From Candidatus Helarchaeota ASGARD archaeon Hel_GB_B (GTDB taxonomy: Archaea > Asgardarchaeota > Lokiarchaeia > Helarchaeales > HEL-GB-B), in contig SUPR01000159.1 in NCBI GenBank assembly GCA_005191425.1, positions 1 to 6,174 on the forward strand: DNA of 6,174 bases, written 5' to 3'. Made by a program: the position numbers and the translations under genes. This document shows, one piece after another, positions 544-5,587 of this stretch. The stretch's first letter is position 1; every line of letters begins with the position of its first letter. The notes beneath the pieces were generated by a model. It saw only the letters and a program-made list of their open reading frames with translations. It did not search any database and had not been told where the DNA came from.

Positions 544-1110
544 TTAAAATCTCTTTTCCATTTCTATTTTAAATTTTTCAATATAGTCTTTAAACAATTT
601 TCGCTTAATTTCCCAATAATTAAATATTTCTTCAATAAATAGACTTGGAATAAATTTTATTAATTCTTGTTTTAAAATTCGCATTTTTCTAATATATTGG
701 ATTAAATAGAAATTTAATTGTGCATATTGTCTTTTTAAAAATTTTTTTGCAATTTCTATTTCTTTAATATTTATCAAAATATTAATTATATTTATCGATT
801 TTTTAATTAATTCAAAAATTTCATATTGAATTACTTGGATTATTGATTTTATTGTTAGTTTTATATTATTAATTATATCATTTCTTGATTTTTCATTCAA
901 TAATTTAAGTCTGGTTTTAAATCTATTTTTATTCTCATTATCATTTAGCTCATCAGAAATAGTGATAGCTAATTCATATAGACTTTTTAAATAATTAGTT
1001 TTGTTATCAAATGGTATATTTAGATTTTCTACTAATTTATCCTTTGGGCGATTCTTTATAAAAATAATTAGATCTTCATCATAATGATTTTGTTGTTTTG
1101 ATTTTGGCAT
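544..1110 (-). CDS. Hypothetical all-alpha-helical protein, 188 aa
   Basis: A 567-bp open frame is very unlikely by chance in ~80% AT DNA. It is co-oriented with its neighbours, is rich in I/K/L/E/N with amphipathic periodicity, and has no Gly, Cys, transmembrane segment or recognisable motif. Confidence 0.75.
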   Translation of the reverse strand: MPKSKQQNHYDEDLIIFIKNRPKDKLVENLNIPFDNKTNYLKSLYELAITISDELNDNENKNRFKTRLKLLNEKSRNDIINNIKLTIKSIIQVIQYEIFELIKKSINIINILINIKEIEIAKKFLKRQYAQLNFYLIQYIRKMRILKQELIKFIPSLFIEEIFNYWEIKRKLFKDYIEKFKIEMEKRF

Positions 1111-1122
1111 ATATAAACACTA

Positions 1123-1137
1123 TGAATTTAAAATTCA
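1123..1137. repeat. Inverted repeat TGAATTT-a-AAATTCA, 12 nt upstream of the 188-aa ORF start
   Basis: Exact 7-bp arms with a 1-nt spacer. The position is compatible with an operator, but function is not shown. Confidence 0.4.
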
Positions 1138-1204
1138 ATACTCTTTGATAAATATATTATTAATTAATTTTTATAAATTTAAGGTTAAGAGAAATTTATT
1201 AATG

Positions 1205-1226
1205 TTTAAATTAAATTTAATTTAAA
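1205..1226. repeat. Perfect 22-bp A/T palindrome TTTAAATTAAATTTAATTTAAA just downstream of the AAA ATPase stop codon
   Basis: The sequence equals its own reverse complement and lies 3 nt beyond the stop at 1230-1232. It is A/T only. Confidence 0.5.
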
Positions 1227-1229
1227 ATT

Positions 1230-3854
1230 TTAAGCATAATATCCAATACTAGTTTTAGTTTTTTGTATATTATCAACTGATTTTTTGAACATATTTATCA
1301 TTTCGGGGGTTAAGGAGGGTTTTACAATTTTCATTGCTTTAATAAAATCCTCTTCAGTAATTCTGGTATTAATATCATTATTTAATTTTCTGGTAAAAGC
1401 GATATGGGCTGCTTCACGTGTTAATTTTTCTAAATCTGAGCCCGTGTAATAATTTGTTTTTTCAGCAATAATAGAAAAATTGAAATTTTCTTTAAGGGGC
1501 ATTTTTTTAGTTTTAATTTTTAAAATTTCAATTCTTTCTTGTTCATTAGGGGGTGGTACTATTATAATATACTGGATTTGATTACTAGCTTTAAGAACTT
1601 CTGGAATTCCTTCAAAATTAATTGTCTCACATATAAATAAAACTGGAGTTTCTTTCTTTATTTTTTCAATTTCATTTTGAATAAAAAGAGCGATTTCAAA
1701 TGATTCTATTGTTTCTGCACGTTCTAACAATATTATGGAGGGTGCTACACGTGCTGCATCTCTTATAAATTTTTTAAAATCACGTGGAGTATCTCCTCTA
1801 TATAAAAATACTTTTGATAATTCAAGTGCTGAATATCTGAAAAAATTTGCTTTTGTTTCGGTTGATAGAGCTTCAGCTAAAAGAGTTTTTCCAGTACCAG
1901 GTAAGCCATAAATAATTATACCTTTTTTAGGATTTATACCAAATTCAATTGATTCTTTATAATGAATTAATGGTTGAGCAACATGTTTTATTAAAAATTC
2001 TTTAACATCTTTTAATCCGCCTATATCATCCCAATAAACTGGGTTTATAATATGTTTTACAGGGGTTTTTCCAGTTCTAGAATATTTTTCAAAAGTTTCA
2101 TTAAATTCTTCAATATCTTCTGTTGATAGATCTGGATTAGTTAATTCAATAGTATTTAATAAATCATTCATACATATTTTTTCATATTTTCCTTTATTAA
2201 CAGCTTCAATAGCCTTATTTCTTTTAGTGGTATCACAGATATAAGCTATTTCTGCACCAGTATAATTTTCAGTTATTTTTGCCAGATAATCAAAATCAAC
2301 ATCATCAGCTAATTCAACATTTTTAAGATGTACTTTAAAGATTTCTTTACGTGCTTTAAAATCAGGGGGAGGAATTGCTATTCTTTCATCAAATCTACCT
2401 GGCCTTAAAAAAGCAGGATCTATATCTTCAATCCTATTTGTAGCTCCAATTACCAATACTCGATCTTCTGGAGTCAATTCAGAAAATTCAGACAAGAAAG
2501 TAGATAATATTGTTGTTAAATAAGGGTGATCAGTTGTTTTTGCTCTCTGAAATGCTAAACCATCTAATTCATCAAAAAATAAAATAGTTGGAGGATTTAA
2601 TTTAGCAGTCGTAAATAATTCTCTAATTTTCTGTTCACTTTCACCTAACCATTTTGATAATAAATCTGGTGCACTAGCATATATAAAATTGGATTGTGTA
2701 GTGTCCGCTAAAACTTTTGCGATATATGTTTTACCACATCCAGGAGGACCAAATAATAGAATGCCGGTGGGCGCATGAACTCCATACTTCTCATACATAT
2801 CTTTTGAGGTTAACATAGAAACAATATCTTGTAATTGCTTTTTAACAGAATCATATCCACCTACATCATCCCATGTTAAATTACGTTTAGAAATTTTTTT
2901 CTCGATTGCACCATATCTTATTGCAGTTATCTCATATTGCTGAATTAGTGATTTAGTTAAAGATGGAATTATTTCATCAAAAGCATCTAAAAAATATTTC
3001 ATTGAGAGTTTTTTATTACTTTCAAATAATTCTTCTGCCCATTTTAATTCAGCAGTTCTTACCAATTTATATAAATCTTGAACAGAATAATTAACTGTTT
3101 TTTTAGCCAATAGATCAATATCTACATCATCATCTATAGGTTTATCACTCAGTATCTTTTCCAGAATCTCTTTTCTATCTTTTTCATTGGGAGGGTGAAC
3201 ATATATAATATCAGAAATATATTCTTGTTTTAAAATTAAAGGAGAAACTAATTCAGGATTATCAGTTACCATTATCAAAATAATGGGTTTATCAGAATTT
3301 TTTATTTTATGAATTGCACTCATTAATGTTATTAATGGATCTTGCATTCTAAAAGTAGCTAGATATATCTGTTTGGATTCAATAGGCGGAGCAATTATAT
3401 CAACTTCATTAATCATTATAATTGTAGGATCATTACTTCCAATCTCATCGATTTTAGAATTTAATTCTTCAATTTGTCGTATAGATACAATTTCCAAATT
3501 TGCTTTACATTCATGAGCTAAAGCATGAATCAATTCAGTTTTCATACACCCATCAGGACCAAAAAGAATTAATACTTTTACAGGCTCTACTTTTATACCT
3601 TTTTTAGATAATAATAGTGGATTTTGTACTTTCTGGACTAATTCTTTTTTAATATCATATAATCCAATTATATCATTCCATTTTCCCTTTAAATGAGATT
3701 TTGATGGAATAAATATATGTTCACATTCACGCCAATTTGAACAACAATATTTATCAACATAATCACTTGTGAGGCCTTCATTACATGCTTCACATAAGTA
3801 AAATATTTCATTAACAACCTTCTTTTTCTTTAAATATTCACAAAAATTTTTCAT
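1230..3854 (-). CDS. Cdc48/VCP-like classical-clade AAA ATPase with three tandem AAA modules, a Cys-rich N-terminus and a C-terminal HbYX-like tail
   Basis: Each module opens with W(D/N)D(I/V)(G/I)G: KWNDIIGL aa58, TWDDVGGY aa327, YWDDIGGL aa607. Walker A motifs are GPDGCMKT (99-106), GPPGCGKT (369-376) and GLPGTGKT (650-657). The middle module has pore loop SKWLGESE, Walker B ILFFDE, sensor-1 ATNR and second region of homology FLRPGRFD. Each module has a helical lid (PPxxxxRxEI...A.kT.nY(s/t)gxd/e). The chain ends IGYYA. Confidence 0.92.
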   Translation of the reverse strand: MKNFCEYLKKKKVVNEIFYLCEACNEGLTSDYVDKYCCSNWRECEHIFIPSKSHLKGKWNDIIGLYDIKKELVQKVQNPLLLSKKGIKVEPVKVLILFGPDGCMKTELIHALAHECKANLEIVSIRQIEELNSKIDEIGSNDPTIIMINEVDIIAPPIESKQIYLATFRMQDPLITLMSAIHKIKNSDKPIILIMVTDNPELVSPLILKQEYISDIIYVHPPNEKDRKEILEKILSDKPIDDDVDIDLLAKKTVNYSVQDLYKLVRTAELKWAEELFESNKKLSMKYFLDAFDEIIPSLTKSLIQQYEITAIRYGAIEKKISKRNLTWDDVGGYDSVKKQLQDIVSMLTSKDMYEKYGVHAPTGILLFGPPGCGKTYIAKVLADTTQSNFIYASAPDLLSKWLGESEQKIRELFTTAKLNPPTILFFDELDGLAFQRAKTTDHPYLTTILSTFLSEFSELTPEDRVLVIGATNRIEDIDPAFLRPGRFDERIAIPPPDFKARKEIFKVHLKNVELADDVDFDYLAKITENYTGAEIAYICDTTKRNKAIEAVNKGKYEKICMNDLLNTIELTNPDLSTEDIEEFNETFEKYSRTGKTPVKHIINPVYWDDIGGLKDVKEFLIKHVAQPLIHYKESIEFGINPKKGIIIYGLPGTGKTLLAEALSTETKANFFRYSALELSKVFLYRGDTPRDFKKFIRDAARVAPSIILLERAETIESFEIALFIQNEIEKIKKETPVLFICETINFEGIPEVLKASNQIQYIIIVPPPNEQERIEILKIKTKKMPLKENFNFSIIAEKTNYYTGSDLEKLTREAAHIAFTRKLNNDINTRITEEDFIKAMKIVKPSLTPEMINMFKKSVDNIQKTKTSIGYYA
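1269..2042 (-). other. AAA module 3 (aa ~605-862): Walker A intact, hydrolysis motifs lost
   Basis: GLPGTGKT is intact. Walker B reads IILLER (DE>ER), sensor-1 reads CETIN, and the Arg-finger region LKASNQIQY has no Arg. Confidence 0.85.
2079..2879 (-). other. AAA module 2 (aa ~326-592), catalytically intact
   Basis: GPPGCGKT, KWLG pore loop, ILFFDELD, GATNR, and LRPGRFD with both arginines (R484, R487). Confidence 0.92.
2910..3683 (-). other. AAA module 1 (aa ~58-315), degenerate
   Basis: Walker A GPDGCMKT (G>M before K), Walker B IIMINE (D>N), sensor-1 VTDNP, no Arg fingers (LILKQEYISD). The pore-loop-1 segment is shortened or absent. Confidence 0.8.
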
Positions 3855-3901
3855 TTTTATAATCCAAATTCCTTTTTTAAAACTAAATAATAATTATATA
3901 A

Positions 3902-5587
3902 TTATTTTTCATTACATCTTTGTTGAAGCAAAAATTCAATTATTTTTTCACATTTCTTAATATCTTTTTCACTATTTAATAGTTTAAAATATTTTTTAGC
4001 TATTTCAGCAAATTTCAAACTGGCTTCTATTTCTTTATTTTCATAAAAGAATTGAACACAATCTAAAAAGAAAAATGTCAATTTTATTGATTTTTCTCTA
4101 TAATTTAAAAAATTAGAAAATTGCAATAGATACTTTTTTAAAATACTTACAATTTTTGTATTATCTTTATCTAAAGGTATAATTGAATTACAAATATAAA
4201 AAGTATTAATGATGGTCTCAGTGAATAAATTTAAGAAATTATTTTCAATCTCAAGATTATTCATCAAATTAAATAACTGATTGAATTTATTATCTATTGA
4301 ATAGAACTCTTTATGTATCAAATGTTCTTTAATTTTTCTAGTAAATATTTTAAAATAATCAAATGATTCAATTATCAAATAAATTAATTTATTTTTAATA
4401 TTTAATGATAATTCATATCCAGGGAAAACCTCTAAAGATTTCAAAAATAAATTAATTTTAAAGTTTCCTAAATATATTGGATTATTTAATAAAACTTCAT
4501 TAACTACATTTCTATTAATCCAATTATCTAAGTGATTAAATATTTTTTCTGCATTTGATGATATGAAATTTTGTCTCCAATTTTCTTTATAATCTATATC
4601 CTCTAATATCTCTTTTAACTCGTCTTCAAATGGATTTTTGATGTTATCAAGATATTTAGATACTTTTTCAGTTATTAACTTAGAATTTTCAATTAAATCT
4701 TCATTTTCATTGAGGTAATTTAATATGTCATGAATTAAATGTCTTCCTAATAAATCATATACATTAATATTAAATTCTTCAATAGTTTTACTATAATTCT
4801 CAAAATCATCGATTAATGCCATAGTAAAATATTTTTTAGCTTCCACTAAATCTCCCATTTTTAATAATAATCTTCCTGCATTATATTCAGCTTTAGCATA
4901 ATCATTTTTATATTCAATTGCTTTTTTAAAATATTCTAAAGCTTTCTTAAAATCACCTTTTTTTTCATAAATTAGTCCAATATTATATATTGGATAATTT
5001 CTATTTTCATAAGATTCAATACTTGCTGCTCTTTCATAAGCTTCCATTGCTTTATTCAATTCATTTAGATCAAAATATGCATTACCCATATTATTCCATG
5101 CGTCCCCATAATCTGGATAAATTTCTACAGCTTTTTTATAACATTCAATAGCTTTATGATTGTCATCTTTGTTTCTATAAATATTACCTAAATTATACCA
5201 GCTCCACCTATAATTTGGATCTAATATTACTGCTTGTTTATAATATTTCATGGCAGTTTCATCATCATCATCCTCTTGTGCTTCAATCCCTTTATCATTT
5301 AAAATATATGGAGTAACCCCCAATTCTCTTAATTTATCTTTAATCATATCAATTATTTCATAAAATTTGTCTGTTAAATCGTTTTCTAATAAATAGTTCC
5401 AAAAATCAGGTTTTTTGTCTTGAATTTCATTATATAGTTCAATTACTTCTATTACTTTTGAAACAGCATTATCAAAACCATAATTTTCGAATTCGTCCTT
5501 GTCCAAATTTGTAAATTCAATTGCTGCTTTATAAAGTTTTTTTAGGTCATCAGTTTTTAATTTTTCAATTATCTCATCGATTTTCAT
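3902..5587 (-). CDS. Tetratricopeptide repeat (TPR) protein, 561 aa: ~90-aa helical N-terminus, five TPRs, ~300-aa helical C-terminal region
   Basis: 34-aa repeats with TPR consensus (W/Y-x-N-L-G...A..Y..A...P) at aa 93-126, 127-160, 161-194, 197-230 and 231-264 (nt ~5311-4796). Example: RWSWYNLGNIYRNKDDNHKAIECYKKAVEIYPDY. Confidence 0.9.
   Translation of the reverse strand: MKIDEIIEKLKTDDLKKLYKAAIEFTNLDKDEFENYGFDNAVSKVIEVIELYNEIQDKKPDFWNYLLENDLTDKFYEIIDMIKDKLRELGVTPYILNDKGIEAQEDDDDETAMKYYKQAVILDPNYRWSWYNLGNIYRNKDDNHKAIECYKKAVEIYPDYGDAWNNMGNAYFDLNELNKAMEAYERAASIESYENRNYPIYNIGLIYEKKGDFKKALEYFKKAIEYKNDYAKAEYNAGRLLLKMGDLVEAKKYFTMALIDDFENYSKTIEEFNINVYDLLGRHLIHDILNYLNENEDLIENSKLITEKVSKYLDNIKNPFEDELKEILEDIDYKENWRQNFISSNAEKIFNHLDNWINRNVVNEVLLNNPIYLGNFKINLFLKSLEVFPGYELSLNIKNKLIYLIIESFDYFKIFTRKIKEHLIHKEFYSIDNKFNQLFNLMNNLEIENNFLNLFTETIINTFYICNSIIPLDKDNTKIVSILKKYLLQFSNFLNYREKSIKLTFFFLDCVQFFYENKEIEASLKFAEIAKKYFKLLNSEKDIKKCEKIIEFLLQQRCNEK

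Follow-up and report, generated by a model that had tools for sequence, protein, structure and literature searches.

Characterised classic AAA unfoldases have, to our knowledge, one ring or two. The Cdc48 family is among them (PMC5070193), activation of the 20S proteasome by archaeal PAN, Cdc48 and AMA is governed by the HbYX motif (PMC3493965), and in Pex1/Pex6 a ring that is dead as an ATPase and lacks aromatic pore loops lies above an active, threading ring (PMC9265785). Here we describe a stretch of 6,174 nucleotides from Candidatus Helarchaeota archaeon Hel_GB_B (the window, which is the entire contig SUPR01000159.1, referred to as C69, of a 3.5 Mb bin with a guanine plus cytosine (GC) content of 28%). 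It encodes a classic AAA ATPase with three modules in one chain and, upstream on the same strand, a protein of 561 residues that, on sequence comparison, is a tetratricopeptide repeat (TPR) gene fused to a helical domain, which we call X. On balance we lean towards a proteasome-docking unfoldase in which one active ring would sit between two dead rings, with X as a cofactor and the TPR repeats as a substrate-binding tether.

The motifs of the ATPase were tabulated for 24 sequences of the family, and all the catalytic motifs are kept solely in the inner one or two modules. In module 2 GPPGCGKT, the SKW-L/Y-GE pore loop, FFDE, GATNR and RPGR are near-invariant, and its aromatic pore loop is like that of VAT at W541-V542 (PMC5423775). 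In module 1 the Walker A lysine (K105) and the Walker B glutamate (E150) are invariant, the sensor-1 asparagine is replaced with aspartate, KQ-E/D-Y stands in the place of the arginine fingers and the pore-loop motif has gone. Module 3 retains Walker A and has lost Walker B, sensor 1, which reads CET, and the arginine fingers. Arginine fingers work between neighbouring subunits of one AAA ring and the middle ring alone should therefore hydrolyse ATP. Members of the family have either three modules (about 875 residues) or four (about 1170 residues), and in the four-module form it is the active module that is duplicated, both inner modules falling in the module 2 clade of a quick tree, the only phylogeny made for the ATPase.

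The Walker A motifs are spaced 270 and 281 residues apart, as compared with 271-273 residues between the D1 and D2 module starts of the three Cdc48s of this genome, and a W-x-D-x-x-G linker precedes each module. Because both the module spacing and the linker motifs are Cdc48-like, we infer that the modules form stacked rings. The AlphaFold2 monomer model lends this no help and to that extent weighs against it: the three AAA modules are well formed (predicted local distance difference test (pLDDT) 78, predicted template modelling score (pTM) 0.40, root-mean-square deviation of about 10 Å to p97), the low pTM leaves their relative positions unfixed, and a Foldseek comparison of the model did not distinguish stacked from side-by-side modules. 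Alternatively, two three-module chains could pair into a single ring, as in dynein or midasin, whose modules lie side by side; the module 2 finger would then complete the module 1 site, where K105 and E150 are kept. Such a ring would, however, leave the fully conserved site of module 2 without a finger, the four-module members do not divide into six positions, and linker length and motif match those of stacked Cdc48 rings, so that we regard it as barely plausible and retain the stacked arrangement.

Only about 55 residues precede module 1. The initial annotation described an ATPase without its normal N-domain, which holds in that CDC48_N (PF02359), although matched by four other proteins of the genome, has no match on C69 even at E≤1; the domain is, however, replaced by a module of about 50 residues with four cysteines and is not simply absent. 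This 4-Cys module probably binds a metal, and the searches found no family match or known relative of it. A 463-residue protein elsewhere (G000, C150:53337-54728) combines a CDC48 N-domain with a single strongly diverged AAA module.

With Cdc48, VAT and p97 (5vc7, 5g4f, 5c18) the ATPase shares classic AAA modules, Cdc48-type linkers and the HbYX tail, and module 2 is 38-44% identical to Cdc48 modules. It is unlike them in having three or four modules and not two, with the outer ones degenerate and Walker B and arginine fingers only in module 2, in the 4-Cys module that takes the place of the double-psi-barrel N-domain, and in its dedicated, gene-linked partner. Its TIGR01243 score is 485.8 against a cut-off of 802.65 bits. 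In the quick tree the family modules form three well-supported clades, each outside Cdc48 D1 and D2; the tree gives no firm choice between Cdc48, PAN/FtsH and Vps4 as their point of attachment, and the branches there are long. PAN, unlike this protein, has a single AAA module with a coiled-coil/OB N-domain, and the scores against its profiles are also below the cut-offs (NF003069, 405 against 500; TIGR01242, 381 against 500).

The family is rare. It was found in 8 of 400 Asgard genomes (E≤3e-95, with the next matches at 5e-43), three of them in Helarchaeales, the order of the window, four in family f28 and one in f29. The f28 ATPases are four-module wherever the gene is complete enough to tell, and the f29 locus has the same upstream gene as that of P0012, which comes from GCA_016292335.1, the type genome of Ca. 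Sifarchaeum subterraneum (PMC9723677). Members P0001-P0022 score 687-1963 bits, as against about 545 for four-module FtsH-type proteins and at most 507 for ordinary Cdc48, and the names on the closest homologues are Ca. Helarchaeota or Lokiarchaeota. When 1.84 billion representative proteins were searched exhaustively with a profile, nothing but fragments of the family was added; an alignment search of genome contigs with the full ATPase was flooded with ordinary Cdc48, and no member of the family came back; and a literature search of incomplete coverage gave no paper describing it. A frameshift or assembly artefact as the source of the three modules is ruled out by more than 20 independent full-length sequences.

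Since multi-module AAA proteins exist in other clades, the number of modules alone is not unique. Metagenomic proteins such as P0023-P0025, P0103 and P0123-P0135 likewise carry three to five modules per chain; they differ in belonging to separate clades (those placed in the tree lie with FtsH/PAN), in that usually most or all of their modules are intact, and in lacking HbYX and a fused X. Among P0023-P0025, P0103 and P0123 are FtsH-type proteins that carry an M41 peptidase; P0124, for its part, joins TPR repeats to three AAA modules, all intact. The anti-phage system IetAS, in which an AAA ATPase gene adjoins a subtilase gene, was considered and rejected: the annotated loci list no S8 protease next to the ATPase, and the IetA profiles match one module, NF042959 scoring 171 against 510.

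The HbYX tail, tallied over 26 sequences, takes the forms YYA, YYG, FYG, LYG, LYS, FYS, PYS and IYS, and the residues preceding it vary while the motif stays. The genome encodes five 20S-subunit genes (PF00227), PAN and three Cdc48s, with the proviso that the contig may be from a related species in the bin. Three marks of an HbYX regulatory ATPase are seen here, namely the tail, an intact threading module (module 2, with aromatic pore loop 1, Walker A and B and the second region of homology) and 20S genes in the genome. Like the members of the archaeal network of PAN, Cdc48 and AMA (PMC3493965), the family has its own N-domain, a conserved HbYX and a 20S in the genome; it would be a further family in that network with an architecture of its own. 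Set against a role at the proteasome, HbYX also ends 2-4% of unrelated proteins (genome ORFs; PMC3493965), one family member ends in YIG, the genome already holds PAN and two HbYX-bearing Cdc48s, and 392 of the 400 Asgard genomes do without the system. We nevertheless consider docking on the 20S likely from the motif and, because HbYX is conserved, delivery of substrates to the 20S proteasome, which the initial annotation put first, still leads.

In an all-against-all comparison of the genes around the ATPase, 19 of the 20 distinct loci with usable upstream DNA have X ahead of the ATPase and on its strand (L143, L144 and L180, cut or fragmentary, were left out). In 6 of these X is fused to TPR repeats and in 4 it directly adjoins the ATPase; a GTPase gene lies between the two in 2, and two small genes do so in 7. 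A profile of X gave 8 matches in 7 of the 400 Asgard genomes, every one adjoining an ATPase gene, though the search scored six candidates per genome with a profile built from these members and remote copies could be missed. L197, fetched only once the profiles had been built, has an X that matches at E 9e-58 and a TPR gene that matches at E 3e-98, and the clades of the X tree are those of the ATPase tree. In G304, which is 69% complete and has its ATPase gene at a contig edge, no X was found.

Several points weigh on the other side: L133 is without X upstream, matching trees are expected from co-inheritance of linked genes alone, and the 20 loci are only about five lineages, for which no p-value is claimed. 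With so few independent lineages, and with the entire region syntenic in the close clade, the genes might travel together simply as an inherited or transferred block whose proteins do not cooperate. We think this very unlikely, as all other neighbours differ between clades while X stays, X persists despite the GTPase gene or the two small genes inserted before the ATPase, no copy of it was found away from the ATPase among the six candidates scored per genome, and the two flanking genes have been fused.

Several loci depart from the simple order. L133:1590-4262 (P0014) is the sole complete locus with no X or TPR gene nearby; it has the longest dead-module branches of the family and a MoxR/DUF58 cluster downstream. 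At L131:9053-9982 and L197:3906-4847 the gene between X and the ATPase encodes an Arf/Rag-like small GTPase with a C-terminal extension, on the same strand and with gaps of 2-29 bp. The two small genes of the four-module loci (about 79 and 66 residues, with no Pfam match on record) lie between X and the ATPase at L129:9425-9865, L176:7899-8333, L139-L142, L178 and L181. L144:139-2087 lacks X and the N-terminus of the ATPase, through deletion or misassembly; hardly any sequence separates an aminotransferase gene from what is left, an internal ATPase fragment of 158 residues.

The protein upstream of the ATPase in the window is made of two parts, with the TPRs spanning residues ~95-260 and the C-terminal 240 residues forming a separate domain. 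The TPR half is 40-44% identical (E 1e-47 to 1e-54) to stand-alone TPR proteins whose genes, in the sister clade (L042, L131, L132, L173, L197), lie immediately 3' of the ATPase gene and converge on it; at L042:7025-8791 the gene is present as two tandem copies. Domain X matches the stand-alone gene of Sifarchaeum (BLAST E 2e-21), and a hidden Markov model made from stand-alone X genes alone finds two matches in the genome of the window, both TPR-X fusions (E 5e-24 and 5e-17). In Sifarchaeum, the sister clade and the four-module loci X is a gene by itself, located 5' of the ATPase and read in the same direction, and most of these stand-alone forms begin with a small cysteine cluster that the fused forms have lost.

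The predicted structure of X is all-helical and solenoid-like (pLDDT 89, pTM 0.82). No specific relative turned up in Pfam, PDB sequence, Foldseek, VIA or ESM Atlas, which does not prove a new fold; the best VIA Z score, 12.4, was to generic helical repeats and MIT-like bundles. Word-index searches found the query alone; as X is too divergent for the index, absence does not follow from this. The sequence of X changes far faster than that of the ATPase, with identities of 17-36% as against 44-71%. The winged-helix PCI domain that follows the helical repeats in lid subunits of the 26S proteasome is not among the Pfam matches listed, and although 26S/Rpn6 chains appear as matches to the all-alpha model of X, they do so among generic solenoids at E≥0.035.

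When ATPase residues 3-768 and X were predicted as a complex the score was 0.43, the best of three controls being 0.00; the runs agree in at least 98% of contacts, the partner has a pLDDT of at least 77, and no solved relative of X was found from which the model could recall the pair. Of the pairs used for calibration, 58 of 80 solved complexes and 2 of 110 mismatched ones came up to the mark; only 7 of the 80, but both of the mismatches, did so with scores of 0.60 or below. Complex prediction had been suggested as a check in the initial annotation; for the ATPase with X the outcome is weakly supportive, in that it modestly raises the odds of a guess that was likely beforehand. Overall, binding of X to the ATPase seems reasonably probable.

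X might bind as an inhibitor, an assembly chaperone or a dedicated substrate and not as a substrate adaptor. The same linkage and the same weak complex prediction would fit, X diverges faster than the ATPase and shows no recognisable binding groove, and Pex15, a helical Pex1/Pex6 partner of about 250 residues with poor sequence conservation, is a precedent in being both tether and substrate of its ATPase (PMC5762779). The canonical TPR array fused to X, on the other hand, fits a tether that brings in other proteins, and we judge these roles unlikely relative to that of a cofactor.

The initial annotation also proposed that the TPR protein partners the ATPase and recruits substrates to it. TPR gene and ATPase do co-occur, so the lack of co-occurrence on which that partnership would have been given up was not what was found; what stays linked to it in all clades is, however, X and not the TPR half. 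Orthologous TPR halves stand beside the ATPase only in the two triple-module clades (Helarchaeota and Lokiarchaeota in NCBI), fused in 6 of 6 loci and convergent in 5 of 5. Convergence means that in the sister clade the TPR gene cannot be co-transcribed with the ATPase, a point against our preferred reading. The four-module loci have a different, longer TPR gene (548-553 residues) just upstream of X that is not specifically orthologous. That the TPR repeats select substrates is conceivable, though somewhat less likely than not.

Comparison with Pex1/Pex6 and with NSF bears on whether the proteasome is involved at all. The likeness to Pex1/Pex6-Pex15 is by analogy only, a dead ring beside an active one and a helical partner of about 250 residues; here there is one gene, two dead modules and HbYX, with no N1/N2 and no membrane anchor seen in X. 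NSF with alpha-SNAP likewise has one active and one inactive ring type and a helical-repeat partner, but the NSF N-domain is missing here, the order is dead-active-dead, HbYX is present and there is no link to SNAREs. An inactive ring beside an active one, recalling NSF and Pex1/6 (PMC9265785), together with a score of the 561-residue protein barely above the SNAP cut-off of Pfam (PF14938, 28.1 against 25, two pieces summed), could speak for a stand-alone segregase that dismantles complexes without the proteasome, including the NSF/SNAP-like action on longin or helical proteins that the initial annotation offered as its alternative. That SNAP score is, however, generic, the 12th of 16 such matches in the genome, the best sequence matches of the protein being to consensus TPR and OGT-type repeats, and alpha-SNAP comes only at rank 30 for the model of X (TM 0.26, E 0.1). 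With no NSF-type N-domain, a longin-like gene at no other locus and a conserved HbYX, the NSF/SNAP-like activity is not borne out and a segregase of any kind appears quite improbable. Most likely the ATPase would work like Cdc48/VAT at the proteasome, and in its dead ring it resembles Pex1/Pex6; by the features compared it falls outside the Cdc48, PAN and NSF families.

For the proteasome-docking unfoldase, six ATPase chains would form three stacked rings. The middle ring alone, judging from its conserved motifs, would hydrolyse ATP and pull on the substrate through Trp-Leu-Gly pore loops, and the first and last rings would be catalytically dead scaffolds, like the D1 ring of Pex1/Pex6. The HbYX tails would open the 20S gate. 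X, for which the complex prediction points weakly to binding, would stand in, as cofactor or gatekeeper, for the Cdc48 N-domain that is missing and, in the clade of the window, the TPR module fused to it may tether a peptide-binding groove to the motor, substrate capture being the least certain step.

Table. Positions of genes, domains and motifs in the window. Minus-strand open reading frames (ORFs) run 5587-3902, 3854-1230, 1110-544 and 296-<3, the plus-strand ORF 5671->6174.
Feature	Position	Strand	Remarks
Triple-module classic AAA ATPase, 874 residues	1230..3854	-	Three PF00004 and three AAA_lid_3 stretches
4-Cys module (residues 1-50)	3705..3854	-	C5, C21, C37 and C44 invariant
AAA module 1 (residues 55-308), degenerate	2931..3692	-	GPDGCxK; KQEY replaces RPGR; no pore-loop-1 motif
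AAA module 2 (residues 324-585), complete	2100..2885	-	GPPGCGKT, KWLGE, FFDE, GATNR, RPGR
AAA module 3 (residues 604-857), degenerate	1284..2045	-	Walker A only; CET replaces ATN; no arginine finger
HbYX C-terminus (Y-Y-A)	1233..1241	-	25/26 family sequences, against 1.9% of genome ORFs
TPR-X fusion protein, 561 residues	3902..5587	-	47 bp 5' of the ATPase; five TPR_1 repeats, E 3e-33
TPR half (residues 77-288)	4724..5359	-	Orthologue of stand-alone TPR genes of 273-297 residues, sister clade
Domain X (residues 316-554), all-helical, no known family	3926..4642	-	Homologue of stand-alone gene of ~250 residues upstream of the ATPase
Helical ORF, 188 residues	544..1110	-	No family; lineage-specific neighbour downstream of the ATPase
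Divergent TPR gene, cut by contig end	5671..6174	+	Syntenic neighbour, close clade only
Longin-like gene, cut by contig end	3..296	-	Fuz_longin_1 E 0.058, sub-threshold

The genes and strands of the initial annotation, including the divergent TPR gene and the downstream longin-like gene, were all reproduced, as were its gaps of 47 bp between the TPR gene and the ATPase (3855-3901) and 119 bp between the ATPase and the helical ORF (1111-1229); the helical ORF and the longin-like gene are 247 bp apart. Neither of the last two appears to belong to the system as had been proposed. Of the 6 loci in the close clade, 5 have the 188-residue ORF after the ATPase, and it occurs nowhere else in what was searched (2 of 400 genomes); it is not homologous to X (hhalign probability 0.5%) and has no significant Pfam match; as the whole region is syntenic in this clade, the synteny spanning an M50 peptidase, a HEAT protein, HAD and PfkB, it may be a mere neighbour. 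A 1240-residue helical-repeat protein takes its place downstream of the ATPase at L125:13084-16806. The longin-like gene lies beside no other locus of this ATPase family, a statement about gene linkage only. Its ORF is 78% identical to the N-terminus of a 285-residue protein (C71:3753-4610), and the genome has several weaker paralogues.

A second complete locus is present in the same genome on C104, with an ATPase that is 71% identical (72% in DNA). The GC content of C69, 23.6%, is at the 0.3rd percentile among 6-kb windows of the bin. For four of its five genes there is a homologue at 72-74% DNA identity on one or other of two further contigs of the bin, and in the quick tree of the ATPase, as in the X tree, the C69 sequence is a basal branch of the close clade. 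The contamination of the bin is 4.9%. Probably C69 comes from a second, related species whose sequences are in the bin; otherwise it would be the product of an old duplication. Its provenance is without effect on the reality of its genes. C81, C68 and C41 show a pattern of duplicated genes like that of C69. A scan for sigma-70 promoters and terminators, a model unsuited to archaea, was at chance, with 67 sites against 57.6 ± 8.4.

The reach of the finding is limited, the family being found in 8 of 400 Asgard genomes with no sign of a eukaryotic descendant. If docking on the 20S is true, the archaeal network of proteasome activators would gain an extra family with a gene-linked cofactor of its own, among the closest relatives of eukaryotes. 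The full picture, in which an AAA ring of three tiers, or four elsewhere, caps the 20S and a helical/TPR cofactor dedicated to it selects the substrates, seems doubtful; if true, Asgard archaea would have invented a counterpart of the eukaryotic 19S, with surplus ATPase rings turned into dead scaffolds and helical-repeat partners that choose substrates. The natural series of three- and four-module proteins, in which the active module is single or doubled between dead ones, makes the relation of ring number to grip and force testable, and with it the purpose of the dead rings.

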